DNA from: Gemmatimonadaceae bacterium
GTDB lineage: Bacteria; Gemmatimonadota; Gemmatimonadetes; Gemmatimonadales; Gemmatimonadaceae
Direction of reading: 5' to 3'
Assembly (NCBI GenBank): GCA_052388395.1
Contig: JBQTIF010000011.1
Span: 1,191 to 65,190 of the forward strand
DNA: 64,000 nt
The first letter of the stretch is position 1. Every line of letters begins with the position of its first letter. Both the position numbers and the translations under genes were made by a program. Of the stretch, positions 1 through 64,000 are shown in pieces. The notes beneath the pieces are model-generated. The model did no database searches and was not told where the DNA came from. It worked only from the letters and a program-made list of their open reading frames with translations.

Positions 1-800
1 AACGCAACCGAAAGCTCCCAGCGTTGACGCCGGTTGCCAGCGAAGAGGAGCATTCGCGGCGCCTCAACGCTGCCGTCTCCGAGTACATGAAGTTCCTCGG
101 CGAGCACGAGGTCGTATCGATCCGCGAGTATATGGATGCAGCGCTGCGAGCACGTATTGGCCGCTTTAATACGGCACCAATCAGCGCGCGCGAGTTCTTC
201 ACACATGTCGACTATCGCGAACCCGTCGCGATGCGCACGCATGGCTACCACTGGTTCGATCTGGCGCGCATGGCAAACGAACCGCATGCGAGCCCGATCC
301 GGCGCGTTCCGCTGCTCTACAACATCTTCGACGAGCGGGCCGAAGGACTCGCCACCGGCATGGAAGAAATGATGATGCACGTCGGCCTGTTCGACGGGCG
401 TCCACGAGCGCGCGAATTGATTTGGGTGCTGCTCGCGCAGCGTGCAGCGCGCGCGTTAGGCGATTTGCGTATGCACGCAAACGAGATTTCCATGGACAGC
501 GCCGTCACATTCGCCTCGCAATGGACCCCGCGCGGCTGGCTGCGCCAGGATGGCAATACAGTCCGTGGAGAACAGCACCTCTACCTGCAGCAGCCGAGCT
601 ACGGCACCAGTTACGTCATCGGCAAGGTTCAGATCGAGCAGCTCATCGGCGAGCGCTCGCGGCAACTCGACGACGCCTTTACCCTCAAAGGATTCATGGA
701 CGACCTGAACGCTGCTGGGATGATCCCTGTCACGCTCATACGTTGGGAGCTCACAGGGGATGCCTCAGAAATAAGGCGGCTGGCGCCGCCTCAGCCCTAG
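1..800 (+). CDS. DUF885-like protein, C-terminal fragment (gene starts upstream of window)
   Basis: The frame of ORF 24..800 is open back to base 3. The C-terminal pattern QQPSYGTSYVIGKVQIEQL...FTLKGFMDDLNAAGMIPVTLIRWE resembles DUF885 C-termini (from memory, not searched). Confidence 0.5.
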   Translation, partial: RNRKLPALTPVASEEEHSRRLNAAVSEYMKFLGEHEVVSIREYMDAALRARIGRFNTAPISAREFFTHVDYREPVAMRTHGYHWFDLARMANEPHASPIRRVPLLYNIFDERAEGLATGMEEMMMHVGLFDGRPRARELIWVLLAQRAARALGDLRMHANEISMDSAVTFASQWTPRGWLRQDGNTVRGEQHLYLQQPSYGTSYVIGKVQIEQLIGERSRQLDDAFTLKGFMDDLNAAGMIPVTLIRWELTGDASEIRRLAPPQP

Positions 801-871
801 GTCCGGGCCCTCGCAGCACTCTCGCGGCTTGTGGCATCCAAGTGGTGACGCGACCGGATAGGAGCACACCG

Positions 872-1546
872 ATGACGAAGAGACGCTGGATTCTCACAGT
901 GCCGGGACTGCTTGTCGTTGCAGCCTTCGCGCACAACGCCGCTGGCGGTTGGGCGGTCGTAAGTGTTCAAGACCTTCCCGAATACGCCGTAGCGGGGCAG
1001 CCGCTGACGCTCACCTACGGTGTGCGCCAGCACGGCGAAGAGCCGTTGTATGACCTGAAAGGGACCGTTTCCGCGCGCTCCAGATCGGGAGCGATGGTGA
1101 GTGTCGCTGCGAAACCAACGGTTCAGCGCAGCTCGTATGCGGCGACGCTGACGCTGCCTAACGCGGGCGATTGGACGATTACAATCGAGCCCGGCTTTGG
1201 AAAGACCAAAGGAAAGCTATTGCCGCTGCGCGCCGTGGCAGCCGGCTCGCAAACATTCCCGTCATACTCGCCCGCCGAGCGCGGACAGCGGCTGTTTGTG
1301 GCGAAGGGCTGCGTGACGTGTCATACGCATGGCGATTCGAAATCGGAGATCGGGAGCCCAGCCGTGCCAGATCTCACGGACAGAACGTTCGCCCCTTCCT
1401 ACCTGGCTGACTACCTCGCCAATCCGAAGATCAAACCGCCCGCCAACCAGCAAGGTTGGCAGATGCCGAACATGCAGCTCAAGCAGCCAGAAATCGCTGC
1501 GCTAGTTGCATTCATCAATTCCGACCGTCGCGTCGCTGTGAAGTAG
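872..1546 (+). CDS. Secreted c-type cytochrome (single CxxCH)
   Basis: ATG at 872 preceded by AGGAG. Signal-like N-terminus MTKRRWILTVPGLLVVAAFA. Haem motif CVTCH. The longer ORF 422..1546 overlaps the upstream gene. Confidence 0.7.
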   Translation: MTKRRWILTVPGLLVVAAFAHNAAGGWAVVSVQDLPEYAVAGQPLTLTYGVRQHGEEPLYDLKGTVSARSRSGAMVSVAAKPTVQRSSYAATLTLPNAGDWTITIEPGFGKTKGKLLPLRAVAAGSQTFPSYSPAERGQRLFVAKGCVTCHTHGDSKSEIGSPAVPDLTDRTFAPSYLADYLANPKIKPPANQQGWQMPNMQLKQPEIAALVAFINSDRRVAVK

Positions 1547-1562
1547 GACCTTCAACCACGGA

Positions 1563-1612
1563 GGGACACGGAGGAGACCGAGAGTGTTTTGCAGTTTCTC
1601 TCTCCGTGTCCC
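1563..1612 (+). terminator. Hairpin downstream of the cytochrome gene
   Basis: GGGACACGGAG (1563-1573) pairs with CTCCGTGTCCC (1602-1612), an 11-bp stem with a structured loop. No clear T-tract follows. Confidence 0.4.
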
Positions 1613-1639
1613 CTGCGTCCTCTGGGGTAAAATTGATCG

Positions 1640-1666
1640 TTGCGCAAATGAGCTTTGTGATATAAA
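1640..1666 (+). promoter_or_regulatory. Sigma70-like promoter with extended -10 (TGaTATAAA)
   Basis: TTGCGC at 1640-1645 and TG-a-TATAAA at 1658-1666, in an AT-richer patch about 30 nt upstream of ORF 1697. Confidence 0.35.
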
Positions 1667-1696
1667 GTACTCACTAGATTCGCTCGGGGGTGCGAT

Positions 1697-1966
1697 ATGT
1701 CGATAAAGGCTCTGCATGCGCTGCTCACTTTGATCGTTGGGCTCGGGTTCGGCGTTACATGGCTGCGCGCGTTTTGGAATCGCCCGGGCTCCGTATCCAG
1801 CGTCGTTCTCATAGCACCTCTCGCCGCCGCCTTGTTAGGCCTGGGACACTGGATCGCGTACGACTTCTCCCTGGCTCACTGGGCCGGCGATTTCAGTCTT
1901 TTGCAAGCGCTCTTCAACATCGGCGTGACATTCCTCCTGCTTGCTCGCCGACGACAAATGACATAG
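1697..1966 (+). CDS. Small hypothetical membrane protein (89 aa)
   Basis: ORF track. Two to three hydrophobic helices and a promoter-like element upstream. Confidence 0.4.
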   Translation: MSIKALHALLTLIVGLGFGVTWLRAFWNRPGSVSSVVLIAPLAAALLGLGHWIAYDFSLAHWAGDFSLLQALFNIGVTFLLLARRRQMT

Positions 1967-2075
1967 CCGCGCGGCGTTGCCGGGCGCTTTCGCGCCGTCC
2001 ATACTCCCGCACGCACGGCGCTCGAACCGCGGGAGGCTGCATGCGAAGCTCGCGAATGACGATGGGAGCCGCGAA

Positions 2076-2510
2076 ATGACGGACCCAATCGTTAGGCATT
2101 CCGTTGTGAGCCCCGCGCTGCAGCCGTGGATCCGTAGCGCTGCCCTCGGTACAGTCCTGGGTACTCTCTTTCTCGGCATTGGCGGACGAGCCGCTATGCG
2201 CGCTATTGCCTCCGTGCAGAATGCCGCTTCCGGTTACTCCTTCGGCGGCACGATGACAGTGGTTTTTCTCGGTGCCGCGTCTGGTCTCGCGGCAGGGGTG
2301 ATCTATGCCGCGTGTCGCAGGCTGTTCACGCGCCATGTCTGGTGGGCTCGCGCGCTGTTCGCCGTCATCTTATTGGCAATTACCCTACGTGGTCTCCGCC
2401 CGCTCGACGAGCAGCGGCTCATCATCTTTCTTCCGCTGTTCATAGCGTTCGGCTTCGCATTTGATCGGCTTTGGGACAGCGCTGTTCGACCTTGGACGGT
2501 GGACACCTAG
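2076..2510 (+). CDS. Hypothetical integral membrane protein
   Basis: In-frame ATG at 2076 within ORF 1977..2510. Four hydrophobic segments. Confidence 0.5.
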   Translation: MTDPIVRHSVVSPALQPWIRSAALGTVLGTLFLGIGGRAAMRAIASVQNAASGYSFGGTMTVVFLGAASGLAAGVIYAACRRLFTRHVWWARALFAVILLAITLRGLRPLDEQRLIIFLPLFIAFGFAFDRLWDSAVRPWTVDT

Positions 2511-2588
2511 ACTGCGCCTCGTAGGCTCCAGCACACAAAATCCGACCGGCTTCCGCCGGCGTAGGTTACGGATGTACCAGATGACTGA

Positions 2589-3146
2589 ATGACTAGCTCT
2601 GCTCCAGCGGCTCCTTCTTCTTCGCACGGCGCGGTGGGCGAAGCTCGCCCCTCCACACCGGAGCGAGGCGGGGCTACGCTCGGCGACCTCTATGACCGAT
2701 ATGGCTCGACTGCTTATAGCTTGGCCCTCTTCATTACGAATGACCGCCGCACAGCGGAGCGCATCGTGACGGCGGCTTTTGCGTCCACGTGGCACTCCGA
2801 CCGCGACGCGGGACCCGCCGCGGCGAAAAGCTTCTTCTCTTTGTTAATGGCGACCGTCCGCACGAAGGCCGTCGTCGCCCGGACCGCCCGGTCGACACCA
2901 GTGTCCTTCGATCGCCCGAACGGACATCAGCCAACGAACTCGTTGGGGATGGCTGTAGCAATGGCGTTGCGCGACCTTCCAGAGTCGCAACAGCATGTAC
3001 TCGCCCTCGCGTATTTCGGAGGTCTGGGCGTAGGCGCTATCGCTTCCGAGCTGCGTGAACCCGTGAGCCATGTAAAAGTGAACCTCCACGCTGCGTTGGG
3101 TCATCTGCGGTCAGTGCTGGCTGAACCTCGCGGAAGGGCGCAATGA
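2589..3146 (+). CDS. ECF-type RNA polymerase sigma factor
   Basis: Region 2-like LYDRYGSTAYSLALFITNDRRTAERIV and region 4 HTH ALAYFGGLGVGAIASELREPVSHVKVNLHAAL. The stop overlaps the start of the next gene (ATGA). Confidence 0.75.
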   Translation: MTSSAPAAPSSSHGAVGEARPSTPERGGATLGDLYDRYGSTAYSLALFITNDRRTAERIVTAAFASTWHSDRDAGPAAAKSFFSLLMATVRTKAVVARTARSTPVSFDRPNGHQPTNSLGMAVAMALRDLPESQQHVLALAYFGGLGVGAIASELREPVSHVKVNLHAALGHLRSVLAEPRGRAQ

Positions 3147-3919
3147 GCCACGAACAGTGGACAGGCTCAGCTGCGGCCTATGCGTTAGGCGCGCTCGACG
3201 CTGACGAGCGTGCCGCGTTCGAGGAGCACGTTGCTACGTGCGCCACATGCCGGGCGGAGGCTGACGAGCTACGCGAGACAGCGGCGATGCTGGCGTATGC
3301 CGCACCAGCGCGCGAGGTACCGCCGCCGGCGCTGCGCGAACGGGTACTGCGCGAAGCACGCGAAGTCCGTCCGATTGCGTCAGCGGCTACCGCTCGCCGC
3401 AAAGCTCCTGCATTCCCCTGGCTCGCGGCTGCGGCAAGCCTAACGCTTGCGGTCCTTGCCGGGATGCAATTCCGCTCGGAGCGCTCCGAACGTCAACGAC
3501 TCGCGGTAGCTCTCGACTCGGTTCGCAGCGATCTTGCGGTTCGCGATTCCATGGTGGCTGCGTTCTTCGGTCCCGAAGTCCACGTGGTGTCGTTGAGTCC
3601 TACGGGAGAGAAGCCGTCCATGCGTGTGTTCTGGAATCACACGCGTAACATCTTCATCGTCACGGCGTTCAACGTTCCGCCTGCTCCCCAAGGAAAGACG
3701 TACCAGCTCTGGGCAATCCGAAACGGGAAGGCGCCCCTATCTATGGGAACCTTCAATACCGACGCCACCGGTCGAGCAACCGCGATTTTGGCGGTGGGGA
3801 ATCAGATCAATGACGGCGGCTTCATCGACCTCTGCGGCCTAACGATAGAGCCGGCGGGGGGCTCGCCGCAGCCAACGGAGCAGCCGCGGCTCATGGGCCC
3901 GTGGCGCCACACGGATTAG
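3143..3919 (+). CDS. Anti-sigma factor (zf-HC2 N-terminus, one TM, RskA-like C-terminal domain)
   Basis: HVATCATCRAE motif, a central TM helix, C-terminal KTYQLWAIRNGKAPLSMGTF. Translationally coupled to the sigma gene. Confidence 0.75.
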   Translation: MSHEQWTGSAAAYALGALDADERAAFEEHVATCATCRAEADELRETAAMLAYAAPAREVPPPALRERVLREAREVRPIASAATARRKAPAFPWLAAAASLTLAVLAGMQFRSERSERQRLAVALDSVRSDLAVRDSMVAAFFGPEVHVVSLSPTGEKPSMRVFWNHTRNIFIVTAFNVPPAPQGKTYQLWAIRNGKAPLSMGTFNTDATGRATAILAVGNQINDGGFIDLCGLTIEPAGGSPQPTEQPRLMGPWRHTD

Positions 3920-4051
3920 AGTAATGCTGTAGCAGCCTCAACCGAATCCTGCCGAGCTCGCCAGTCGCTGTCTCTAACGAGCGAGCGTTGACGACCGTAG
4001 CGACGCAGTGTGTGGCCCGGTCGATGCAACTCGTTTGGGGCGGAGGCGTCA

Positions 4052-5029
4052 ATGCCAAAGCTCTACTGGAGCGCGACCCTCGCTCTTCTGCTCGCGAGCG
4101 TATTGAACCTTTCCGCGCAAGCTCGTTTCTCCGCGCGACCGCTGCCGCGTGCTCTCGCGCGGGCCGCCGAGACTGGTGTTGGGCCAGTGGAATCGGAGAT
4201 GCGCAACGTCGACTATCACGTCGACCAAACAGTCGTGCTCAACATCGCCTATTTGCGCGGGACGCTGCGCAGCACTCGGCCGAACGAGGCACCGTGGTTC
4301 GATGATCCGACATCATTCGACATCGTCATAGACTCGGCAGTCGTCGCGATCACACCCGCCAGCCTAACGGCGCTGCTCAATACCTACGTCTTCCATTATC
4401 CGGGCGCCGATATCAAGAAGCTCAATGTGAAGGTGGAAGGGTCCCAGCTCGTGCAGACTGGGGTGCTCGACAAGGCGATCAACCTCCCCTTCACGATCCG
4501 CTCGCAGCTCAGCGTGACGCCTGACGGACGGCTGCGGCTGCATCCGACGTCGGTCAAAGTCGGCGGGATCGGCGTTAGGCGGCTGATGAACGCGTTAGGA
4601 CTCGAGCTGGAGAATTTGGTGAAGGTTCGAGCCGGCAATGGCGTGGAGATCGACAAGGACGATTTCTTGTTGAATCCCGAATTGCTATTGCCGCCACCGC
4701 GCATCAAGAGCCGCGTGACGTCGGTGCAGGTCGTCAATGGTCGGGTCGTGCAGACTCTCGCGAGTCGTTCGCCTCGGACAGTGCCGCGCTTGCTCCCACC
4801 GCAGAAGGCGCGCAACTACATGTTCTATCAGGGGCGTGTCCTGCGCTTTGGCAAACTGACCATGCAAGCGACCGATCTGCAGATCGTAGATGCCGACCAG
4901 AAGGACCCGTTCGACTTCTTTCTGGCGCGACTGAACGACCAGTTGGTCGCTGGTACCAGTCGGAATCTGCCTGATTACGGGCTCGTAACGACGATGCCTG
5001 ATTTCGCCGACTTGAAACCCAAAAAATAG
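4052..5029 (+). CDS. Secreted hypothetical protein
   Basis: ATG at 4052 with GGAGG 6 nt upstream. Signal peptide MPKLYWSATLALLLASVLNLSAQ. Confidence 0.55.
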   Translation: MPKLYWSATLALLLASVLNLSAQARFSARPLPRALARAAETGVGPVESEMRNVDYHVDQTVVLNIAYLRGTLRSTRPNEAPWFDDPTSFDIVIDSAVVAITPASLTALLNTYVFHYPGADIKKLNVKVEGSQLVQTGVLDKAINLPFTIRSQLSVTPDGRLRLHPTSVKVGGIGVRRLMNALGLELENLVKVRAGNGVEIDKDDFLLNPELLLPPPRIKSRVTSVQVVNGRVVQTLASRSPRTVPRLLPPQKARNYMFYQGRVLRFGKLTMQATDLQIVDADQKDPFDFFLARLNDQLVAGTSRNLPDYGLVTTMPDFADLKPKK

Positions 5030-5100
5030 TGGCTAGCGAATAGGTGGATAGGAGGATAGGAGGATCGAACACTGATCCCCCTATCCCCTATTACTACGCA

Positions 5101-5688
5101 CTATTTGAGTTGGTCGTGCGTGCTACGATACGCCGGGAGGTGCCCCTCGACGTGCGTGCGCACTTCCTCCAAGAACGCGCGCACTTCTGGACGCTGTTCG
5201 CGCGTCAGCGCGTCCTTTACTTCATCGAGGACCGTTTCGTGACGTTCGATCTCGTACTGGAGATACGCCGCGTCCCACTCCTTCCCCTTCGGCTTGTTGT
5301 TTAGCGCTTCCGTCCACTTGCGCTGATTTTCGGCCAGACTCTCGTCGGCCGTGGGAACCATCGGCGTTAGGTTGAGCTGCGCCGCCAGATCCTTTGCTTT
5401 CTTATCCAGCGCGGTGTGCCCCTCGATGGCTTTCCCGGCGAGCGCCTTGACTTCGCGGCTTGTGGCGTTCGTCTGCGCCATATTGGCGAGCGCGATCGTC
5501 CCTTCGTTCGCCAGTCCCAGCAGCCCAAGCATCTCAGCTGCCGTGTATTCCTGCGGAAGTGCCGCCATTCCAGCCGCCGTGTCTACTTGTAGCCCAGCGC
5601 TATCATATTCCGAGTCGCGCCCAGCGCATGCCGCCAAGACAGCCGTTAGGCACGCTGCTGTGATGAGTGCGTGTCGCGTGTTCTTCAT
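5101..5688 (-). CDS. DUF4142-like (ferritin-like four-helix) lipoprotein
   Basis: Lipobox LAAC. Repeated helical pattern with GH...L and ERHETV motifs typical of DUF4142 (from memory). Confidence 0.6.
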   Translation of the reverse strand: MKNTRHALITAACLTAVLAACAGRDSEYDSAGLQVDTAAGMAALPQEYTAAEMLGLLGLANEGTIALANMAQTNATSREVKALAGKAIEGHTALDKKAKDLAAQLNLTPMVPTADESLAENQRKWTEALNNKPKGKEWDAAYLQYEIERHETVLDEVKDALTREQRPEVRAFLEEVRTHVEGHLPAYRSTHDQLK

Positions 5689-5772
5689 AGAAATCCTCGC
5701 CTTGATCGGTGATCATCGACTGCGTTGCGCCGCGAGTACTCGCGGCGTTGCGGACCAGCGCTCCCCCGAGCG

Positions 5773-6231
5773 CTACGTTGGGTTTGGAGGGGTCGCTGGC
5801 TCCGAAATACGTTCGATCACGTGCGCAAGATCGCGCTCCGTGACTTCCCTGTTTGTCTTTGTCGCGCGTGCGAGATCCGCCTGCGCGACGATGCCGACGC
5901 AATACCCGTCGTCATCGACGATGACGACACGGCGCACCTGCTTGTCGGCCATAACGCGTTCGACTGCGCTGACTTCGTCGTCAGGCAGACAGCACTCTGC
6001 CTCACGCGTCATCAGTTCGGACACCTTCGTGTGAGGCCCCTTCCCCATGGCGATGCCGCGGATGGCAATATCGCGGTCGGTGATGACACCGAGGACGCGC
6101 CGGTTGTCTCCCGTATCGACAACTGGCACACAACCGCAGTCGTTGTCGGCCATGAGTTGCGCAACTTTTCGAACGTCGTCGTCGGGCGTGACGCACGCGG
6201 GACTCAGCGTCATTAGATCCTGCGCTCGCAT
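5773..6231 (-). CDS. CBS-pair domain protein
   Basis: Two CBS repeats (DLMTLSPACVTPDDDV...VVD...VLGVITDRDI; ELMTREAECCLPDDEV...VVIVDDDGYCVGIVAQADL). AAGGAG 7 nt upstream of the ATG. Confidence 0.8.
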   Translation of the reverse strand: MRAQDLMTLSPACVTPDDDVRKVAQLMADNDCGCVPVVDTGDNRRVLGVITDRDIAIRGIAMGKGPHTKVSELMTREAECCLPDDEVSAVERVMADKQVRRVVIVDDDGYCVGIVAQADLARATKTNREVTERDLAHVIERISEPATPPNPT

Positions 6232-6391
6232 GTGTCGCTCCTTACATCGTGTAGGCTTGTGGAGGCCAACGTGATAGCTCTTGGCTCTTCGCTCTTAGTG
6301 CTTGGCGCTTAGGGGGGCCATGGCCCCCGTCCCTTTGGACGGAAGCCAGAGCCCAGCACCCAAGAGCCAGGACCTAACGAGTATTACCTAA

Positions 6392-6901
6392 CTAGTAGCC
6401 TTCCTCATCCCCGCCCCCGGATGACTCACCAGCGCGCTTTTCGCGATCACGCGGGTCATTCGTACCACCGCGCTGCGTCCCTTCACCAAATCCTTCGTCG
6501 CCCCTCTGCGAGCCGCCCTGACCACTGCCGCCTCGCTGACCCGGTTGTCCTGACTGACCCTGTTGTCCTGACTGACCTTGCTGTCCTGACTGGCCTTGCT
6601 GACCTGACTGGCCCTGTTGTCCCGACTGACCCTGTTGTCCTGACTGGCCCTGTTGACCGCCTTGCTGCGGCCGCGAGCCCTGTCCCTGCGAACCTTGCTC
6701 ACCGCCTCGCTGCGACCCTTCGTCAAAACGCTGACCCCCACCGCCCTGGTTTTGTTGCCCTTCGCCAAACTGCTGACCTGTGCCACCGCCAGCCCCTTGC
6801 CCCTGCGTCGCATGTTCGCGGCGGTTGTGTTGATCGAGTTTGTCGCGCGAGTCAAACTGCGCGCCGCATGCTCGGCAGGTGAAGTCTTTGGTTTCGGCCA
6901 T
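6392..6901 (-). CDS. Small protein with one classical C2H2 zinc finger and a Gly/Gln-rich disordered tail containing (GQQGQS)n
   Basis: FTCRACGAQFDSRDKLDQHNRREH fits F-x-C-x2-C-x3-F-x5-L-x2-H-x4-H. The tail is encoded by 18-nt tandem repeats. Confidence 0.7.
   Translation of the reverse strand: MAETKDFTCRACGAQFDSRDKLDQHNRREHATQGQGAGGGTGQQFGEGQQNQGGGGQRFDEGSQRGGEQGSQGQGSRPQQGGQQGQSGQQGQSGQQGQSGQQGQSGQQGQSGQQGQSGQPGQRGGSGQGGSQRGDEGFGEGTQRGGTNDPRDREKRAGESSGGGDEEGY
6536..6657 (-). repeat. 18-nt coding tandem repeat, about 6.5 copies (CTGACTGRCCYTGYTGWC on the + strand)
   Basis: Units at 6550, 6568, 6586, 6604, 6622 and 6640. They encode GQQGQS on the minus strand. Confidence 0.85.
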
Positions 6902-6902
6902 G

Positions 6903-8345: not shown

Positions 8346-8379
8346 GACACGCTCGATGGCAAGACGCGAGCCCCATGGG

Positions 8380-8955: not shown

Positions 8956-8981
8956 GTTCCCGGGCGTGAATGCAAGGGACG

Positions 8982-55995: not shown

Positions 55996-56080
55996 GTAAG
56001 AGCATTGTGTAGAATTGTCGGAGTCGCCGAGTGCACTTGGTGCGGCGCTCGGTGACTCCGCTCTTCTTTCAGAAGGTTCG

Positions 56081-56323: not shown

Positions 56324-56348
56324 CGCCTAACGGGAAATGCGTTAGGCG
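56323..56348. terminator. 9-bp hairpin made of an inverted pair of the iterated word, spanning both stop codons of convergent genes
   Basis: CGCCTAACG (56324-56332), loop GGAAATG, CGTTAGGCG (56340-56348). The TAG of the + gene is at 56321-56323. The TAA of the - gene (56342-56344) lies inside the word. Confidence 0.5.
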
Positions 56349-56716
56349 GCGCTGTCTCGAGGGGGCATCACCCGCAAGTGCTCGTCGCGACACCGTGAGC
56401 ACGCGGTGATCTCGCCCAGGGTATCCGTGAATAAGGGCCAGTCTCGACGCCCTTTTTTATCCGCGTGACACTTGCACGAACATGAGGCGACTTTGCCGCG
56501 CGAGTCGGGCACGCTATCCATCGCCGCCGAAATATCCGCGCGATCGGGGTAGGCGCGGTGCGCCGCGTAAACAACGCGGTTCATTGTCGTGCTTAGGAGT
56601 TGTTGGGCGCGGAGCACGCCGGGGCTATTTGAGCCGGAGTTGGCTAGTTCTTGATAAGCCTCCATCACTGCCTGAACCAGCAACTTGTGCAGCTCCGCGG
56701 GAGTCATGCGTTGCAT
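56342..56716 (-). CDS. Hypothetical Cys-rich protein (124 aa)
   Basis: ORF track. The C-terminal CSCKCH...CSRCRDEH suggests a zinc-binding module. Confidence 0.45.
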   Translation of the reverse strand: MQRMTPAELHKLLVQAVMEAYQELANSGSNSPGVLRAQQLLSTTMNRVVYAAHRAYPDRADISAAMDSVPDSRGKVASCSCKCHADKKGRRDWPLFTDTLGEITACSRCRDEHLRVMPPRDSAA

Positions 56717-57090
56717 CTGTTTTTCAACCGAGCGTTATGCATAACGGACTTCATTGAAGTGCACTGGCGCCGTAGCGGCCTCGAGCAATATGGTTGACGC
56801 GGCAGCCGTCGGGTCCGTCACCAGTTTGAAGCCATAGAGTGGCACACGGCGTGCCGCGAGCCGCAAAACAGGCCGTCTATTGAGGCGGAATCAGGCCCTT
56901 GTTATCCGGTAGCTGAACCAGAATGCGCCGACGCCAAGTACGACGATGCCGATCACACGGAGAGAGCCAGGACCGCTGCGAGGCGGCACTCGAGCTCCCG
57001 AATGTTCTCAGACACTTGATCCTTGTCATCAGCTGGGAAACGCGCAACCTGCGCGGTCCCGTCTGCCGTTACAGACATGCTTGATGTGGT

Positions 57091-58233
57091 CTAACGGCTG
57101 GTCCCGGACAAGTAGATACGCGCTACGTCACGTGCGATCGCCGCTGGCTGCGCGCCGTCAGCGTTCGTCAGTACGATCACCGTAAGGCTGTCGTTAGGAA
57201 AACGCGCCATCTCGGCACGGAATCCCGGCAGCGAACCGCCGTGATGCACGCGCCAGTGTCCGTCGATCGAGTCGAGCGTCCAGCCGAAGCCATAGCCGTA
57301 CGTTTGACCACTGGTTAGGCGGACTGGCGCCCACATCATGTCGCGGCTCTCCTTGGTGAGCACGCGATTCTCGTACAGCGCCGCGTCCCACTTTGCCAGG
57401 TCGAGCACTGTCGAGAGAAACGCGGCGCTCGGTCGCAGCGCGAGAAACTCCGTCGCGTTGACGTATTGGTTCTGCCTCCACGCATAGCCCCGCGCACGAC
57501 GCGGCACGAGATCGCTCGTAGTCGTCGTCCGCGTGGACTGCATCCCCAGAGGGCGAAAGACGCGCTCGGTAAAGAAATCAGGCCACGGCTTTCCCGATGC
57601 GCGCGCGATGATGTCGGCCAAGCTGAAGTAGCACACGTTGCAGTACTGGTACTTCGATCCCGTCGCAAACTCGAGCGGCCGCGCGAAGGCCGAATGAATC
57701 ACGATGCTGTCGGCCTGCAGCTTCAACGCGTCGAACGCCGGTCCTTCGCGTAGCACGCCGGACGTGTGCGTCAGGAAGTGGCGCAGCGTGATGCCGCCCC
57801 ACGATTCCGGCGTACCCGTTAGGTGCTTCCCCACGAGATCGTCGAGCGTTAGGCGGCCGTCCTGCGCGAGCAGCATGATCCCGGCAGCGAGGAACTGCTT
57901 GCTCACAGACCCGATCTTGAACACAGTCTCAGGTGTTACTGGGATGTTGTGTTCGAGATCGGCCATGCCGTACCCCTTCGCCTTGATCACTTTTCCGCCG
58001 CGCACTACCGCGATTGCCACACCGGGAATGTGAGCGCGGGCCATCTCCGCGCTGATCAACTTGTCGACAGTGTCGGGCGGAGCCGTCGCTGCCGTGGACT
58101 GAGCGCCGAGGGAAACATCTTGGACAGCGATTGCAAGGACGAGCGCAAGGATGCGATTGGGCACAAGAACTCTCCGGCGTAAGCCTTTGACCAAAGTATC
58201 AACTGATCGAAGTGTCAAGCCGGTGAGGGCCAC
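57091..58233 (-). CDS. Serine hydrolase of the beta-lactamase/PBP4 (class C-like) family
   Basis: SVSKQF (SxxK), YQYCNVCY (YxN) and HHGGSLPG. Signal-like N-terminus. Confidence 0.8.
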   Translation of the reverse strand: MALTGLTLRSVDTLVKGLRRRVLVPNRILALVLAIAVQDVSLGAQSTAATAPPDTVDKLISAEMARAHIPGVAIAVVRGGKVIKAKGYGMADLEHNIPVTPETVFKIGSVSKQFLAAGIMLLAQDGRLTLDDLVGKHLTGTPESWGGITLRHFLTHTSGVLREGPAFDALKLQADSIVIHSAFARPLEFATGSKYQYCNVCYFSLADIIARASGKPWPDFFTERVFRPLGMQSTRTTTTSDLVPRRARGYAWRQNQYVNATEFLALRPSAAFLSTVLDLAKWDAALYENRVLTKESRDMMWAPVRLTSGQTYGYGFGWTLDSIDGHWRVHHGGSLPGFRAEMARFPNDSLTVIVLTNADGAQPAAIARDVARIYLSGTSR

Positions 58234-58340
58234 CGGCGCCAGGACAGTACGAGCACCCGCGTTTTTGGGTTCCGTTCAGCGCCCAAGATCGTAGCGCGAA
58301 TGGATTTATCGGACGCTGGTTCGCGCAAAATGTGCTTGAT

Positions 58341-58358
58341 CTGACTAGACTGACTAGA
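58341..58358 (+). promoter_or_regulatory. Tandem direct repeat CTGACTAGA x2 just upstream of the antitoxin gene (candidate operator / -10 region)
   Basis: Copies at 58341-58349 and 58350-58358. TAGATT at 58355-58360 is -10-like. The ATG is at 58372. Confidence 0.45.
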
Positions 58359-58371
58359 TTACAGTTCGCTG

Positions 58372-58659
58372 ATGCGCGACGAATACTCCCTGTACGACGC
58401 AAAGGCGAAACTCTCTGCCCTCGTGCGACTTGTCCGCGAAGGCCGCTCCGTGATCATTACGCTGCACGGGAAGCCGGCTGCGGAGCTGCGCGCGATCGAT
58501 GAAAACGTCAGGCCAAAATCTCTGGATGAGCGTCTGGCTGAGCTGGATGCGCGGCGCGCAATCGTTAGGGCCGGGCGCAAACCGAGCGATGCCGCCGCAT
58601 TCCCAATGGGCCCGCGCCGGCCAGGGGCGCTGAAGCGCTTTCTCAAGCAGCGCGATTGA
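58372..58659 (+). CDS. Phd/YefM-family antitoxin
   Basis: YSLYDAKAKLSALVRLVREGRSVIITLHGKPAAEL. Overlaps the toxin start by 4 nt. Confidence 0.75.
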   Translation: MRDEYSLYDAKAKLSALVRLVREGRSVIITLHGKPAAELRAIDENVRPKSLDERLAELDARRAIVRAGRKPSDAAAFPMGPRRPGALKRFLKQRD

Positions 58660-59036
58660 CCGCTGCCTACGTCGACACGTCCTGCATAGTCGCGGCCGCG
58701 TTCGGTGAATCGGCCGCCACCCGAGTTGTCGGGCGCTTGTCGCGCTTCGATCGCGTGCTCTCCTCGCCGCTCCTCGAAGCCGAGTTGTGGAGTGCGCTCG
58801 TTCGCGAGGGACGCGACATCACCGATGCCTACTCGTCTGCCATCGAGCTCGTCGTTGTCGAGAGGCCGCTGAGCGCGGAGGTCCGGCGAGTGCTCGAGGC
58901 AGGCTATGTGCGCGCTGCTGACTGCTGGCACCTGGCAACGGCACTTTACCTAGCCCCAGACCCGACGGACCTCACCTTCCTGACGCTCGACGACGCGCAA
59001 CGCAAGCTTGCGAAGACCCTCGGCTTTCGCACCTAA
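58656..59036 (+). CDS. vapC: PIN-domain toxin (VapC family)
   Basis: AAYVDTSCIVAAAFGE..., ...RAADCWHLATALY..., ...FLTLDDAQRKLA. The stop TAA lies inside a CCTAACG copy. Confidence 0.8.
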   Translation: MTAAYVDTSCIVAAAFGESAATRVVGRLSRFDRVLSSPLLEAELWSALVREGRDITDAYSSAIELVVVERPLSAEVRRVLEAGYVRAADCWHLATALYLAPDPTDLTFLTLDDAQRKLAKTLGFRT

Positions 59037-59208
59037 CGACGCAGCGGGAGTGGGCTGGTCACGTTGTTTTCGGCGCAGCCGCCGACGGAGGAACGCACCG
59101 CGCGGCTGTGAGACCTGGCACGCCGAGGCACTGACAATGCTGTGCGCTGCGCACAAATTGCTGGGGCTAGCCGGCGCTCGTGCTGCTGGCCCTCACCCTA
59201 GCCCTTGT

Positions 59209-61509
59209 ATGCTCGTACGAAAGCCCTCGCACGACCTGCGCCGTCGCACCACGTGTCTCATCGGGTTCCTGTTCTTGGCCGCGCCGGCCCCTGGCGCCGC
59301 CCAGAACTCGATGAGCTTGGGGGCGACTATCGATAGTGTCGACGTGGCACGCGCCATACCGATGCCAATCGCACGCCTAACGGGACAGATCCGGCTGGAC
59401 GGGATCGTGAATGAGCCGGCATGGGAAGTCGCGCAAACGCTTCCGATGTTCATGTTCTCCCCCAGCTTTCTGGCGCCGCTCAGCGAGCGCACGGAAGTCC
59501 GTATCGCGCACGATGACCGTTACCTCTATGTCGCCGGCAAGCTCTACGACTCCGACGTCAGCCAGATCCGCACCAACACGTTCTACCGCGACGCGTACAG
59601 CGGGGATGACCTGCTGGCTATCGTCGTCGACAGCTACAACGACTACGAGACGGCGGTGTGGTTCGTCACCAACCCGGCCAGTGCGCGCAGCGATCGCTCC
59701 GTTTCGAATGACGCCGTGTTCTCCGGCGGTGTCAACGCAATGAACTCGGACTGGAATTCACATTGGGACGTCGCCACATCGCAGAACGAGCATGGCTGGT
59801 ACGCCGAGTTTCGCATCCCCTTTTCTACGTTAGGCTTTCAGGTGAAGGGCGACGAAGTCGCGATGGGCGTGATCGTCTATCGCTTTATTGCGCGCAAGAA
59901 CGAACGGCACACCTTCCCCGCGATCGATCCCAAGTGGGGCGGGCTTGCGTTCGCCAAGCCGTCGCAGGCGCAGCGCGTCGTGTTACGCCAGGTGCGCCAG
60001 TCGAAACCCGTGTACGTGACGCCGTACGTACTCGGCGGCGCGCGCAGGACGCCACAGCTCAACGAACCGGCTGGTGCTGCCGCATTCTGGAGCACTACAG
60101 CGCGCGAGTGGAGCGATGTCGGCGGCGATCTGCGCTACTCGCCGACGTCGAATCTTGCGCTCGATCTCACGATGAACACCGACTTCGCCCAGGTGGAGGC
60201 CGACGACCAGCAGATCAACCTAACGAGATTCCCGCTCTTCTTCCCCGAGAAGCGCCAGTTCTTCCAGGAGCGCGCTTCGACCTTTCAGTTTACGACTGGA
60301 GGCTCATCGGACAGGCTATTCCATAGTCGGCGCATCGGCCTGGCTGAAGGGGAGATCGTCCCCATCTATGGCGGTGTGCGCGCCGTTGGCCGCGTCGGTG
60401 GAATGGATTACGGACTCCTCAGCATGCAGACGACGGCGCACGGCGAACGCTCGTCGGAGAACATGAGCGTGGCGCGGCTGAATCAGCAGATCCTGAATCC
60501 GTATTCGTCCATCGGTGCGATGTTTACATCGCGTTATGGCTCGGCCGGTGAAGACAACCTCGCCTATGGTGTGGATGCCGTGTTGCGCCCGTTAGGCGAC
60601 GAGTGGTTGACGCTGCGATGGGCCCAGACGTTCGACGAGGCAGTCGTCGAACGCTCGGCTGCGTCGGCCGGTCTCCTGCAGGCGCGCTGGGAGCGCGTGC
60701 GCGACGACGGCTTCACGTATTCCGGCGAGTTCAATAGAGTCGGTGAAGACTACATACCGCGGCTCGGTTTCCAGTCGCGGACCGGTGTCCGGTATTTCGG
60801 CGGCCATGCGCAGTACAAGCGCTTCCAGAGCGCCTCGTCTCCGCTGCGCTCAGCGGGCGTTCAGGCCAATTCTGGCCATTTCATACGGTCACTCGACGGC
60901 ACCGCCGATTCGCGCTGGATCGAAGGACAGCTCAACATCGAGCTGAAGAACGGCAGGCAGCTGCAAGTGGCGGGCAGATCGAGTTATGAAGGTGTACTGG
61001 AGGATTTCACTGTGGCGGGGGCGAGCGTCTCCGCCGGCGAGTACTGGTTCCATGACGCGCACGTTAGGCTGGAGCTGGCACGCAGCGCGAACCTTAGAGG
61101 CGACTATTCCGTGACGGCGGGGTCCTTTTACGACGGCACGCGCATCGGTGCCGCGTTCAGCCCTGCGTGGAATCCGTCCAGGTATGTCGAGCTGGGCGGT
61201 GGTTATGAATTGAATCGCCTAACGTTCGATGAGCGCAACGAGCGGGTAACGGCGCATCTTGCGCGACTCAAGCTATAACTGGCGCTCAATACGCACATCT
61301 TTTTCAGTACGTTCGCGCAGTATAGTAATGTCGCGGACCTCGCCACGTTCAACGCGCGCTTCCGCTATCATTTCCGCGAGGGAACGGACCTCTGGCTCGT
61401 GTACAACGAGGGACTCAACACGGGGCGTGACTTGGTGGGGCAGCCGCGGCTGCCACGGTCGTCCGGACGCACATTCATGCTGAAGTACACCCACACGTTC
61501 ATCTGGTAG
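59209..61509 (+). pseudogene. DUF5916 / carbohydrate-binding family 9-like outer-membrane-type protein interrupted by an in-frame TAA at 61276-61278
   Basis: ATG at 59209 with signal peptide. CBM9-like IRLDGIVNEPAWEVAQ...RIAHDDRYLYVAG. After the TAA the same frame continues LALNTHIFFSTFAQYSN...FRYHFREGTDLWLVYNEG...FMLKYTHTFIW-TAG (61507-61509), which is the expected family C-terminus. Confidence 0.6.
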
Positions 61510-61577
61510 AAACGCAGCACATCAGTCGCCCGCGGCATTGTGCTGCCTGTGCACTGTGATCGTGTTACAATGCACAC

Positions 61578-61820
61578 ATGGACAGCACGATCCGTAACCT
61601 TGACCCTAAGGCTTATCGCGCGCTCAAAGCTCGGGCGGCCGCGCTAGGAAAGACTGTCGGCGAGACCATAAACGAGGCCATTCGCGTTTACCTCGCGCGA
61701 CCAGAGAGCAGACCTCGGGAAGGCAGTCTCAGAGATCTTTCGCCAGAACCCTATCCGCCAGGGAACGAGCGCCTCTCGGCGCAAATCGACGCGGTGGCGT
61801 ATGGAGTTGGGCAGAACTGA
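61578..61820 (+). CDS. Ribbon-helix-helix antitoxin (VapB/FitA-like)
   Basis: MDSTIRNLDPKAYRALKARAAALGKTVGETINEAIRVYL is a typical Arc/MetJ-type N-terminus. Confidence 0.65.
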   Translation: MDSTIRNLDPKAYRALKARAAALGKTVGETINEAIRVYLARPESRPREGSLRDLSPEPYPPGNERLSAQIDAVAYGVGQN

Positions 61821-62242
61821 GGGGTTGGCTCTCGAGCGATTGTCCTCGACTCCAGTTTTGTTATCGCGTATCACAACACGCGTGATGCACACCATGCGGC
61901 GGCTGCGCGAGCGATGGTTCACCTCAGCGGCGGACATTGGGGCCAAGCGCTCCTGCTCGAGTATGTGTTCCTGGAAATCGTCACCGTTCTGCGACTGCGT
62001 CGCGATGCCGCCGTCGCCGGCGAAGTGGCCGAGCAGCTACTGCAAGCGCGCGAAGTGGATTTCGTCCCCTGCTCCGATTTCTTCCTGGAGACGCTGAGCA
62101 CATTCCGAGCGGAGGCCGCTCCGCTGAGTTTTGTCGACGCCGCGATTGTGACGCTGGCGCGCCGCGACAGAAAGGGGGCTATGTCGCAACGTTCGATGCG
62201 GATTTCAAGGACGTCGCCGGCATCAAAGTCATCCCAGCCTGA
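61801..62242 (+). pseudogene. PIN-domain toxin (VapC family) with two frame changes
   Basis: The ATG at 61801 overlaps the antitoxin end. IVLDSSFVIAYHN...LLLEYVFLEIV...SFVDAAIVTLARR is one frame from about 61839. The C-terminal GGYVATFDADFKDVAGIKVIPA is another frame after the AAAGGGGG run near 62170. Confidence 0.5.
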
Positions 62243-62338
62243 AGTGGTCACGCGACTGGTCAGCGAGATGTACCGCACCGAATAGCGAGTGGATCGCACT
62301 CACGTTTCTCTGCCGGTGGATTAGGCTTGTGCACAATT

Positions 62339-62372
62339 CCCAAATTGGGTATGATCATTCCCAATATGGGAA
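62339..62372. promoter_or_regulatory. Two related palindromic boxes (CCCAAATTGGG; TTCCCAATATGGGAA) upstream of the wHTH-MNT gene
   Basis: 62339-62349 and 62358-62372. They share ATTCCCAA(W)(W)TGGG and lie immediately upstream of the GGGAAGG RBS and the ATG at 62375. Confidence 0.45.
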
Positions 62373-62374
62373 GG

Positions 62375-62968
62375 ATGGCTTCTACGAGTGGCCTCGCCGA
62401 CGCGCTGTTCACGCCAGTCCAGCAGCGCGTTTTGGGATTGCTCTTCGCGCAGCCAGAGAGGCGCTTCCAGAGTGCAGAGCTGATCAAACTGGCCGACAGC
62501 GGGACCGGTGCCGTTCATCGGCAGCTCGGACGCCTCGCTGACGCCGGGCTCGTAACTGTTACTCGTACAGGGAACCAGAAGCACTACCAAGCGAACCGCG
62601 ACGCGCCTGTGTTCCGTGAATTGCACGGTCTCATTTTGAAGACTGTCGGCATTGTCGAACCGCTGCGTGCTGCATTGGCAGACCTTGCACCACGAATTCG
62701 CGCTGCTTTCGTCTACGGTTCTTCAGCAAAGGGGACCGCGCGCGCGCGCAGCGACATCGATGTTATTGTCGTCTCAGATTCGCTGCAGTACGCGGACATT
62801 TACGGTGCTCTAGGTCCGACCGAGAGAATTCTGGCGCGGGCCGTGAATCCCACGGTGCTTACAACGTCGGACTGGCGCGCGAAGAAGAGACGCGTCGATT
62901 CGTTCGTAGCTAGGGTAGTTAGGCAGCCGCGATTGTTCGTCCTGGGAACCGCCCGTGATCTCGAGTGA
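62375..62968 (+). CDS. Winged-HTH fused to a minimal nucleotidyltransferase (MNT) domain
   Basis: wHTH FTPVQQRVLGLLFAQPERRFQSAELIKLADSGTGAVHRQLGRLADAGLV. NTase motif YGSSAKGTARARSDIDVIVV. Confidence 0.7.
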   Translation: MASTSGLADALFTPVQQRVLGLLFAQPERRFQSAELIKLADSGTGAVHRQLGRLADAGLVTVTRTGNQKHYQANRDAPVFRELHGLILKTVGIVEPLRAALADLAPRIRAAFVYGSSAKGTARARSDIDVIVVSDSLQYADIYGALGPTERILARAVNPTVLTTSDWRAKKRRVDSFVARVVRQPRLFVLGTARDLE

Positions 62969-63371
62969 GCTGGAGAACCTCGTTCGCATCGGTCAGCTCA
63001 AGCGCGAGCCAACCAATCACAGTGAGTTAGAGGGATTGCAGCGCTCCGGCGGCGCACGTTTGCGTGACGCGGCTAACAAGCAGCTGTCGCTCGAGAGTCG
63101 TTTCGACTTGGCGTACAATGCGGCGCACGCGTTTGCCCTTGCAGGCCTGCGACGGCTCGGTTTTCGATCCGACAATCGCTACGTCGTGTTTCAATCGCTA
63201 CCCCACACCCTTGGCGTTGATACGCCGGTTTGGCGCCTGCTTGCCAAATGCCATGGACTTCGGAATCAGGCCGAGTACGAGGGGTTGCTCGAGGTGGATG
63301 AGCGACTCGTTGACGACTTGGTCGATGCGGCTAAGGCCGTACAGAACGCGCTCAAATCCGCGACTACTTAG
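62955..63371 (+). CDS. HEPN-like helical protein, probable partner of the MNT gene
   Basis: Overlaps the MNT gene by 14 nt. All-helical 138 aa. The motif position reads LRNQAEYEG (RNxxxY rather than canonical Rx4-6H), so the call is tentative. Confidence 0.45.
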   Translation: MISSELENLVRIGQLKREPTNHSELEGLQRSGGARLRDAANKQLSLESRFDLAYNAAHAFALAGLRRLGFRSDNRYVVFQSLPHTLGVDTPVWRLLAKCHGLRNQAEYEGLLEVDERLVDDLVDAAKAVQNALKSATT

Positions 63372-63554
63372 CCTTCGTTATCACCGCCGTCTCGTTCAGC
63401 CACGCCCGTAGCGTTTCAGGAAGTATTGGATTGAATACTCCCGGGCGCGTCGTCGGCGTGGGCCGCCAGAGCGGATAACTCTCCTGTTGACACGCGGTGC
63501 GGAAGAAAGAGTGGTCGATCGAATCCAGCCGGTGCTATTCTAGCGCTGCCGCCG

Positions 63555-64000
63555 TCATCGTCCGCGCAGCCAGTCGCTAACAGAGTCATAGAATCCTGGA
63601 ACAACGCGCTGAAGGTTGGGAAGCTCGTCGTCGCTGGCTCTTGTCGCTTCAAGCAGAAGGTGACTGGCATTCGGAAAAACCGTGACTGTGAAGTCCGCTC
63701 CTCTGCGGCTTAGCAGCGCTTGAGTGAATCGCGGCACGACAGCAGCAACGGGCGTCTGGGCATCGAGCTCACCGAACATTCCAAGTACGGGACCTTTGTA
63801 CGCGCGCCACGCCGGGAGCGGATCGAAGCTCACCTCAAGCGCCGTATACCACGCATTGCGGTTGCGCCAGTCGACTTCTGACGACAGAGGAAATATCCAG
63901 GCGCTCAGGACCGAATCTGAACGCGCCGCGCGCACGGCGGCGTCGTACTCGCGCGCATCCGCTCCCTCGCCGCGGCGCAGCATAACGAAAAACCGCTTCT
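63555..64000 (-). CDS. Alpha/beta hydrolase, C-terminal part (gene start beyond window end)
   Basis: ORF 63555..63983 is open to the window edge. The pattern ...PVLGMFGELDAQTP...VFPNASHLLL is typical of dienelactone hydrolase/esterase C-termini. Confidence 0.45.
   Translation of the reverse strand, partial: KRFFVMLRRGEGADAREYDAAVRAARSDSVLSAWIFPLSSEVDWRNRNAWYTALEVSFDPLPAWRAYKGPVLGMFGELDAQTPVAAVVPRFTQALLSRRGADFTVTVFPNASHLLLEATRASDDELPNLQRVVPGFYDSVSDWLRGR

Follow-up and report, generated by a model that had tools for sequence, protein, structure and literature searches.

What would cause one short, asymmetric DNA word to recur 133 times, in both orientations and mostly inside genes, within 64 kb of the genome of a soil bacterium? 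The stretch in question, which was analysed over its whole length of 64,000 nucleotides and is referred to here as the window, comes from a metagenome-assembled genome of Gemmatimonadaceae. To our knowledge, hyper-abundant signature words have not been described beyond very few lineages (Neisseriaceae, Pasteurellaceae and cyanobacteria), and there is still debate over how they arose and what they do. The window would offer an independent case, as its word is both asymmetric and very dense and its clade belongs to uncultured soil Gemmatimonadota. The word, (G)CCTAACG, is regarded as a lineage-specific signature of a group of Gemmatimonadaceae; a role in DNA uptake or self-recognition, of the type served by the DUS of Neisseriaceae and the USS of Pasteurellaceae, is the favoured reading, but it stops somewhat short of being probable, with both the uptake receptor and competence itself being inferred.

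Abundance, shape and spacing of the word

By exact count, the window contains 66 copies of CCTAACG and 67 of CGTTAGG. Eighty-six of these 133 sites extend to the 8-mer (44 as GCCTAACG and 42 as CGTTAGGC), and GCCTAACG, which is not its own reverse complement, is the top-ranking 8-mer of the window by a wide margin. The 7-mer GTTAGGC is found 54 times on the + strand, 12 times without the leading C (20 times if both strands are counted). The counts given in the initial annotation, which had been made without any database search (66, 67, 86, and 12 GTTAGGC without the C), held exactly; its G+C content of about 65% was off, the measured value being 61.9%.

For the 8-mer, 1.9 copies are expected from 100 dinucleotide shuffles (sd 1.4, maximum 7) and 1.7-2.5 from Markov models of orders 0-2, as opposed to the 86 observed. 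The initial annotation had also asked for a codon-aware null. When synonymous codons were shuffled gene by gene, 8.4 ± 2.7 7-mers (maximum 15) and 3.3 ± 1.8 8-mers were expected within genes, where 110 and 72, respectively, are observed; an artefact of codon or dipeptide usage is thereby all but excluded. The maximal-order Markov z-scores, likewise suggested there, were calculated and turned out to be uninformative for GCCTAACG, because the sub-words themselves consist of the word; low-order and masked models were used in their place. An enrichment of 50- to 90-fold is thus shown, and neither composition nor codons account for it.

The sharpness of the motif is shown as well. The core, CCTAAC, is strict and must be flanked by G on one side or both; the hexamer alone is near background (5 observed, 2.2 expected), and it is enriched only with flanking G (15-, 30- and 92-fold). 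One-mismatch variants are, overall, at about background level (226 observed, 209 expected), the only enriched forms being those altered at the final G and CATAACG, and one-base deviations cluster at the first and last position of the word. Depletion of one-mismatch neighbours is not seen in the window. Past one base on either side, the flanks of the copies are unrelated, which is the reason for rejecting a repeat element. A REP/MITE or other mobile repeat is also all but ruled out by the location of 83% of the sites (110/133) within ordinary predicted genes, by the presence of both orientations and by the agreement of independent assemblies.

The copies are placed more evenly than at random, with a coefficient of variation (CV) of the spacing of 0.66 versus 0.99 for random placement (0/5000 simulations) and a widest internal gap between sites of 1598 bp. 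The order of orientations along the window is random (runs test, z = -0.26). The + and - sites repel each other, the merged CV of 0.66 comparing with 0.83 under independent orientations (P = 0.002), and therefore either orientation serves equally, as it does in uptake sequences (PMC1939737). Even spacing that is blind to orientation is thus shown for the window, and even spacing is also seen in the relatives L303, L002 and L038. Orientation skew, proposed earlier as a sign of a polar function, was looked for across the 64 kb and not found (66:67, mixed throughout); across the window, GC skew is too faint for an origin or terminus to be located or a replichore defined. Inverted pairs at gene ends, which had been listed among the traits of uptake sequences, are weakly represented, with only two pairs comprising 4 of the 133 sites. 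An Rfam search of the window gave no match.

The word within genes and between genomes

Nearly all genes contain the word, and all six reading frames are occupied by it. Within genes, the four stop-free frames are used as nnC-CTA-ACG (44 sites), CCT-AAC-G (19), nCG-TTA-GGn (31) and nnC-GTT-AGG (16), while the two stop-containing frames supply real stop codons. Eight stop codons are formed in this way (Table 1), and 7 of the 23 TAA stops of the window fall in the word. The imprint on codon and dipeptide usage is considerable: 42% of the TTA, 33% of the CTA and 23% of the AGG codons fall in the word, as do 28% of the Leu-Thr and 39% of the Pro-Asn dipeptides, the latter showing the highest over-representation (observed/expected 1.8) among dipeptides with at least 30 occurrences. 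The odds of finding the word are similar in coding frames, stop codons and spacers.

The gene fdnG was chosen as anchor of the ortholog comparison and aligned with nine relatives. Its main open reading frame (from 18658) carries eight copies, with all four open frames in use, and its N-terminal part carries one more. Of the two neighbouring direct copies in this gene, the second required a change from Ser to Thr relative to outgroups. That all stop-free frames occur within fdnG alone had been noted in the initial annotation, as had the codons for LLGN (19339-19350) and RLTE (20794-20805); each of these statements held.

In clade comparisons, word sites persist at 45-87%, in contrast to 19-27% for average 7-mers, and the conservation of orthologous word sites exceeds that of matched controls 3- to 4-fold. 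Where the encoded dipeptide is itself conserved, 80% of the word sites (57/71) are retained, whereas the figure for other encodings of the same dipeptides is 24% (39/162). Sites turn over while density is maintained, as exemplified by one loss that is offset by a gain 15 bp away, and new sites typically require at least two substitutions. The earlier claim that the constraint would act on the DNA word and not on the protein is supported by the codon null, by ortholog conservation with the dipeptide control and by related genomes, and the lack of orientation skew agrees with the orientation-neutral word that had been inferred; preservation of the word as DNA, and not as protein code, is shown.

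Table 1. Coordinates of the word field, of stop codons formed by the word, and of further features of the window
Feature	Position	Strand	Remarks
Word field, 133 copies	1..61224		Mean spacing 481 bp; 66 on +, 67 on -
TAA stops in word (starts)	9675, 25580	-	Stop-codon check
TAA stops in word (starts)	22246, 24222, 29089, 30859, 59032	+ (22246 only)	Stop-codon check
TAG stop in reverse word (start)	52539		Stop-codon check
Stop example CC-TAA-CG	22246..22252	+	Word supplies the stop
fdnG, formate dehydrogenase alpha subunit	17977..21339	+	In-frame TGA selenocysteine codon 18565-18567
Two direct copies, 15 bp apart	20795..20817	+	Inside fdnG; encode RLTEHHLTG
Inverted pair CGTTAGG...CCTAACG, 16 bp apart	35116..35138		Between convergent genes
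Inverted pair GCCTAACG-N7-CGTTAGGC	56325..56347		Terminator-like hairpin between convergent genes
Word-free tail, ~2.78 kb	61225..64000		0 sites, ~5.8 expected; G+C 59.6%

Distribution among lineages and in accessory DNA

The word is hyper-abundant in close relatives and in a second lineage of Gemmatimonadaceae with a mild shift of dialect, GCCTAAC being commoner there than CCTAACG. Independent assemblies of related Gemmatimonadaceae show 16-25 sites per 10 kb; taken over several loci, related genomes range from 8 to 25 copies per 10 kb. The clade is represented by metagenome-assembled genomes only. Relic sites in the sister lineages L016 and L018 are decaying. Among the remaining Gemmatimonadales and the other phyla that were sampled, unrelated high-GC genomes included, the word is absent. 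Its restriction to a lineage is thus shown, and the earlier inference of a word iterated in the lineage is supported, since it is neither confined to the window nor present in unrelated high-GC genomes. The second word-bearing lineage was found, through L295, in a metagenome scan for word hairpins; its matches were otherwise mostly chance or unrelated low-GC phage repeats, and viral sequences scanned for the same hairpins were near chance level. A supposed second dialect word in L073, CTCGCAATGAC, proved to be the ends of an intergenic palindromic element of about 100 bp and is not iterated. In the literature searched, the word was met only in primers and constructs and is not described, consistent with the statement of the initial annotation that no such word was known, and neither iterated words nor competence turned up there for Gemmatimonadota.

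Absence of the word from the tail of the window is shown. Its genes code for a FitA-like RHH antitoxin with a weak PIN match and for a nucleotidyltransferase, after which a small protein is encoded. These genes are likely to represent accessory toxin-antitoxin modules, as inferred from sequence alone, and the small protein might be a HEPN partner, for which there is only its position and sequence. In the relative L303, different genes follow the DUF5916 gene. Two phage-type contigs bear the word at 8-10 copies per 10 kb, about a third to half of the host density, the orientation being 9:3 in one of them.

The contrast between two word-bearing lineages and sisters with decaying relics would be suited for phyletic profiling of the responsible gene and could test the origin of the word, be it uptake bias, methylation-linked repair or another process. 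The word further provides a practical marker with which these genomes can be binned, hosts assigned and foreign DNA recognised.

Candidate explanations and known systems

Uptake tag, protein-binding site and footprint of methylation or repair, the candidates named in the initial annotation, are all still standing, and none is singled out by sequence. In the favoured reading, the duplex DNA word would be read by a sequence-specific protein, and selection or drive acting directly on the DNA would uphold about two copies per kb. Within the transformation machinery, a DNA receptor at the cell surface or in the periplasm would favour word-bearing fragments, with the proposed consequence that conspecific DNA would be preferentially taken up and recombined. 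Alleles gaining the word by point mutation would spread through biased uptake, i.e., by molecular drive, whether or not "safe" recombination is also selected for, and saturation would be reached once nearly each fragment of ~0.5-1 kb had one copy in either orientation. If this were true, sequence-biased transformation would be implied in abundant soil bacteria. The uptake reading is supported by enrichment beyond composition and codons, constraint on DNA, conserved sites, their turnover at constant density, orientation-blind even spacing that recurs in relatives, lineage restriction with a dialect, absence from the toxin-antitoxin island and the two inverted pairs between convergent genes. Against it stand the lack of reported competence for Gemmatimonadota in the literature searched, the small share of sites in inverted pairs (4/133), and the nearly all-or-none motif, whose mismatched forms are not over-represented in the graded fashion known from uptake sequences (PMC1939737). 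In addition, deviations at the first and last base resemble HIP1 (PMC4390886), the word in phage-type contigs would be explained only if these were long-resident prophages, and no uptake sequence as short as 7-8 nt is known to us.

A close rival, from which the uptake reading cannot be separated by sequence alone, is a HIP1-like, methylation-linked word, which remains possible. An orphan (or type IIG/III-like) methyltransferase, hypothetical at present, would recognise the asymmetric CCTAAC core, and a methylation-dependent cell process would make and maintain the extended word to saturation at about one per 0.5-1 kb; candidates for this process are strand choice in mismatch repair (Elhai's ratchet model) or a methylation-dependent step of recombination or transformation, such as has now been reported for HIP1. 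In favour are the hexamer core near background unless flanked by G, deviations at the first and last positions as reported by Elhai for HIP1 (PMC4390886), saturating and even spacing, and conservation like that from which Xu et al. argue for selection on HIP1 (PMC5861425). Word copies in phage-type contigs would be expected if the process acted on any DNA replicating in the cell. However, the word is non-palindromic, and methylation of one strand predicts independent spacing of the orientations, since each would serve a different daughter duplex, yet these repel each other (P = 0.002), so that the model needs methylation of both strands. Furthermore, one-mismatch neighbours are not depleted, though a conversion ratchet might predict this, and gains typically take two or more substitutions. 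For HIP1, a link to DNA uptake is now being proposed (bioRxiv 10.64898/2026.06.24.733823; 10.1101/2024.09.10.611283).

Less credible is a binding site of an abundant chromosomal protein, involved in nucleoid organisation, segregation or the like, at regular intervals and in either orientation. Even, orientation-blind spacing, conserved sites and a sharp, protein-like motif with core and flank preference would fit, but absence from the toxin-antitoxin island would be explained only by recent arrival of the latter, and no candidate protein is known; nor is any nucleoid protein known to us that forces rare codons and amino-acid changes on genes by imposing a sharp word of 7-8 bp twice per kb. A bolder reading, only slightly less doubtful, sees in the word the tag of an unknown system for marking self DNA, distinct from classical uptake sequences and without a link to methylation, whose orientation-blind duplex reader (in defence, repair or chromosome handling) would require a tag about every 0.5 kb, with phages having evolved to copy it.

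A Chi-like or polar signal of recombination or translocation (RecBCD/AddAB Chi, FtsK KOPS) marking self DNA is very unlikely. It would be in line with a non-palindromic over-represented 7-8-mer that is missing from the accessory island and present in phage-type contigs, with a 9:3 orientation bias in one of the latter. The orientations are, however, 66:67 and mixed over 64 kb (with n = 133, a skew of at least 60% has P ~0.01 by a rough normal approximation, unless the window straddles an origin or terminus), and + and - sites obey one spacing rule, whereas polar signals act per orientation. The density of the word is about 10-fold that of Chi in E. coli. A functionless by-product of neutral mutational or repair bias is at least as improbable, for although the word appears wherever tolerated (coding frames, stops, spacers) and also in phage-type DNA, continual neutral replenishment predicts neither site conservation nor relic decay in sister lineages nor even spacing.

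Among known systems, the Chi and KOPS/SRS polar motifs are similar in being non-palindromic 5-8-mers that core DNA contains in excess. Their orientation strongly follows that of replication; the Gemmatimonadaceae word, unlike them, has no skew in 64 kb and orientation-blind spacing. Closer is HIP1 (GCGATCGC) with the alternate HIPs of cyanobacteria, octamers that are 15- to 300-fold over-represented, lie within genes and approach one per kb. Their sites are likewise conserved between genomes (PMC5861425), the present values being 80% versus 24% for the matched control, and a stricter inner core with deviations at the first and last position is common to both (PMC4390886). HIPs are, however, palindromes tied to known methyltransferases, whereas GCCTAACG is asymmetric and without a known methyltransferase. 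From DUS and USS, both of Proteobacteria, the word of this Gemmatimonadota clade differs in length (7-8 nt versus 9-12 nt), in being about twice as dense, in having neither an extended flanking consensus nor gradual mismatch enrichment, and in the share of copies in inverted pairs (~3% versus the ~10% reported for uptake sequences). With DUS and USS it has in common the short non-palindromic form at one or more copies per ~1 kb, equal orientations without chromosomal polarity, tolerance in coding frames with an influence on codon and dipeptide use, lineage specificity with dialect-like variation, occasional inverted pairs between convergent genes and absence from the presumed accessory toxin-antitoxin island, although the two phage-type contigs do carry the word.

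Abundance, sharpness, and spacing of the word

Recounting gave 66 copies of CCTAACG and 67 of its reverse complement CGTTAGG in the window, 44 and 42 of which, respectively, are extended to the 8-mer GCCTAACG/CGTTAGGC. The hand counts of the initial annotation (66, 67, and 86) were confirmed exactly, as was the near-equality of the two orientations. At a G+C content of 61.9%, the 86 copies of the 8-mer compare with an expectation of 1.9 from dinucleotide shuffling (maximum of 7 in 100 shuffles) and of 1.7–2.5 under Markov models of orders 0–2. It is the commonest 8-mer within the window, twice as frequent as the next, and the words following in rank overlap with it. The annotation had also called for a codon-shuffled null, which was run within the window on a working gene model (63 genes, 87% of the sequence). 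Shuffling of synonymous codons gene by gene, with protein and codon usage kept, the rare codons of the word itself included, yielded 8.4 ± 2.7 in-gene copies versus 110 observed; neither codons nor peptides can thus account for the excess.

The strict core of the motif is the hexamer CCTAAC, which is near background without any flanking G (5 observed versus 2.2 expected) and is enriched 15-fold with a 5′ G only, 30-fold with a 3′ G only, and 92-fold with both. At position 0 a purine is favored (G 86, A 25, C 12, T 10), and no information was found past one base on either side of the word. With such uninformative flanks, a repeat element was rejected as the source. In 112 kb of DNA from the word-bearing Gemmatimonadaceae clade, the one-mismatch variants of the 7-mer sum to 226 versus 209 expected, and only CCTAACH (36 versus 6.5) and CATAACG (21 versus 6.3) are enriched. 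The motif is thus nearly all-or-none and, as inferred from sequence alone, would resemble a protein recognition site. CATAACG, the sole internal variant enriched in the window and clade loci, appears in orthologs where the word has decayed. On the complementary strand, this change reads as G→T at the 5′ G of the GG doublet; it would fit a hotspot of oxidative damage or a variant that keeps part of the function.

The sites are spaced far more evenly than by chance, with a coefficient of variation (CV) of 0.66 versus 0.99 ± 0.08 for random placement (0 of 5000 simulations) and a largest internal gap of 1598 bp versus a simulated mean of 2606 bp. Even spacing recurs on contigs of relatives (CV 0.40 in L303, 0.64 in L002, and 0.57 in L038). 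The orientations are mixed along the entire window, and their order is random (z = −0.26 in a runs test). Independent placement of plus and minus sites would give a merged CV of 0.83 ± 0.06, against which the observed value has P = 0.002; one spacing rule therefore serves both orientations, and any reader of the word treats both alike. Polar signals such as Chi or KOPS are thereby disfavored, as is any model giving each orientation a different strand.

Lineage distribution, turnover, and effect on proteins

Relatives of FdnG assign the window to Gemmatimonadaceae. At the fdnG locus (formate dehydrogenase alpha subunit), the six closest relatives (81–87% protein identity) carry 20–25 sites per 10 kb. 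Further out, values are 3.6 for L016 and 1.3–2.7 for L018, L039, L006, and L007, and all other loci, whether in Gemmatimonadales or in further phyla, have at most about 1 per 10 kb, mostly zero. The DUF5916 locus agrees, with 15.9 per 10 kb in L303 (87% identical) and 0–0.4 in orthologs at 72%, 69%, and 60% identity, the last from a 4.67-Mb genome. Neither of two outcomes that would have refuted the initial annotation, confinement to the window or one repeat family and equal abundance in unrelated high-GC genomes, was observed. A second Gemmatimonadaceae lineage (L295, L306 on a 954-kb contig, and L307; G+C 66–68%) has 8–12 sites per 10 kb and prefers GCCTAAC over CCTAACG (34 versus 27 in L306, 30 versus 19 in L307), a mild, dialect-like shift in which flank is strict. 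The word is also present in L253, a contig of 74% G+C. Candidate word-bearing members are the 954-kb contig ERZ25039457:contig_54750, GCA_025927495.1, and the MAGs of DATFBW01, CBQVAZ01, DASYRX01, DATBKN01, and JBQTJS01, whereas the genomes to which L302, L304, and L305 belong are among the sisters without the word.

When nine relatives were aligned to 9.3 kb of the window, comparisons within the clade showed 45–87% of word sites preserved versus 19–27% of 7-mers overall. In the outgroups, no site of the window and few of those in the clade as a whole are kept; there, 14–20% of average 7-mers are still identical, and word positions usually hold preferred synonymous codons, CTG/CTC instead of CTA/TTA. 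With the dipeptide held constant, all seven bases are identical in 57 of 71 cases (80%) if they form the word and in 39 of 162 (24%) if they do not, which upholds the earlier inference that the constraint acts on the DNA word and not on the protein. Sites turn over while density stays: in the window, TCGTTAGGC was lost through a synonymous A→G change, and ACGTTAGGC was gained 15 bp upstream through two synonymous changes. Two orthologous sites are common to L016, L018, and clade members; the word must therefore have existed before the clade arose and has mostly been lost by decay from the former two lineages. L039 is counted with them among the relic lineages.

By context, 63 sites are sense, 47 antisense, and 23 intergenic or at gene edges, the latter share (17%) comparing with 13% non-coding sequence. 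The earlier statements that most copies lie within genes (110 of 133) and that all four stop-free frames are used both held; in addition, the two stop-containing frames provide real stop codons in 8 genes. The word accounts for 42% of TTA, 33% of CTA, and 23% of AGG codons, for 7 of 23 TAA stops, and for 28% of Leu-Thr, 39% of Pro-Asn, 18% of Leu-Gly, and 13% of Val-Arg dipeptides. In the window proteins, Pro-Asn has an observed/expected ratio of 1.80, the highest among dipeptides with at least 30 occurrences, and Leu-Thr one of 1.38; it thus seems that the word has changed the proteins themselves. Such a change is directly visible in FdnG, where RLTEHHL(S)G of outgroups has become RLTEHHLTG, creating a second word copy. 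Only two close inverted pairs occur.

Word-free tail, phage-type contigs, and further features

No copy is present in the terminal 2.78 kb of the window, which have a lower G+C and for which about 5.8 are expected; the longest gap elsewhere is 1.6 kb. Two putative gene pairs in this tail look like typical mobile toxin-antitoxin modules, with the reservation that the PIN match of one is weak and that the 138-aa protein of the other, which we take to be a possible HEPN partner from its position only, has no Pfam match. L303 has different genes at this position.

Two phage-type contigs were found only through a word hairpin they contain. L156/L308 (G+C 72%; adaptor, neck, protease, and tape-measure genes) has 12 copies of CCTAACG in 14.3 kb, oriented 9:3, and its relatives at ≤49% identity have almost none. 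L085 (G+C 61%; terminase, portal, protease, and capsid genes) has 12 copies in 12.1 kb, oriented 6:6; nine of these extend as GCCTAACGA, six of the nine as GCCTAACGAAC. These head/packaging modules thus combine host-like G+C with the sharp word at 8–10 per 10 kb, and may be long-resident prophages or reflect a process acting on any DNA in the cell.

Separately, an unrelated repeat of about 45 bp, GACGCCTAACGGCGCCCCTTAATTCAAACGTTAGG, occurs several times per contig in the low-GC viral/metagenome contigs L158, L232, and L282, and related motifs of about 23 bp (CCTAACGyyyGAnnnAAGGGGC) recur in L096, L148, and L179; both look like phage regulatory repeats containing the word by chance. The remaining features are listed in the table. 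The two ORFs at fdnG constitute one gene, since the in-frame TGA lies in a conserved selenocysteine context. In L303, the DUF5916 gene is followed after about 2 kb by the permease and fusion genes, which in the window are 43 kb away from it, implying rearrangement within the clade.

Coordinates of features in the window and in two contigs of other Gemmatimonadales
Feature	Sequence	Position	Remarks
fdnG	window	17977-21339	single selenoprotein gene; ORFs 17977-18567 and 18658-21339
In-frame TGA of fdnG	window	18565-18567	...ENQARI-U-HSSTVPGLG...
Inverted word pair	window	35116/35132	between convergent genes
Inverted word pair	window	56326/56340	between convergent genes
GspE/PilB-type secretion ATPase	window	49033-51279 (-)	fused to C-terminal response-regulator receiver domain; no other pilus or type II secretion genes nearby; neighbors include RCC1-repeat/Big_2 protein and CsgG-like lipoprotein
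First putative toxin-antitoxin pair	window	within 61578-63371	FitA-like RHH antitoxin with weak PIN match
Second putative toxin-antitoxin pair	window	within 61578-63371	HTH-nucleotidyltransferase, then 138-aa protein
Amino-acid permease and aldo-keto-reductase/RidA fusion	window	14838-17889	
Same genes	L303	4762-7656	
REP/MITE-like intergenic palindromic element, ~100 bp	L073 (another Gemmatimonadales MAG)	5773-5860, 12633-12722, 14507-14604	ends GTCATTGCGAG...CTCGCAATGAC; inner pair GAAGCAATC/GATTGCTTC

Comparison with known iterated words

The firm conclusion, and a very likely one, is that the word is real, specific to its lineage, and maintained as DNA. For its role, a DUS/USS-type uptake or self-recognition word is ranked first, with confidence well short of even, the reader of the word being inferred and not shown. 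A methylation-linked, cell-intrinsic mechanism like that of HIP1 remains a possible and close rival. In its favor, three features fit HIP1 better than DUS/USS: the all-or-none sharpness, an asymmetric hexamer that is strict while deviations gather at the two terminal bases of the word, and the occurrence in phage-type DNA (PMC4390886, PMC5861425); against it, both strands would need marking to fit the orientation-blind spacing. Reading by a chromosomal binding protein is unlikely; a Chi-like tag is very unlikely, and a functionless bias even more so. Codon usage and a repeat element are excluded. In the full-text literature searched, the word was found only in primers, and neither an iterated word nor competence was reported for Gemmatimonadota.

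Measured against the properties of uptake sequences summarized in PMC1939737, the word resembles DUS/USS in its orientation neutrality, its tolerance in coding sequence with effects on the proteome, its lineage restriction with a dialect, its even spacing, and its absence from one accessory island, although two phage-type contigs carry it. It differs in lacking graded mismatch enrichment, one of the defining features, and has not been proven to belong to the uptake-sequence family. A role in DNA uptake or transformation is now being proposed for HIP1 itself, so that the uptake and HIP1-like readings may converge. The word, undescribed within the literature searched, belongs with the hyper-abundant lineage-specific signature words.
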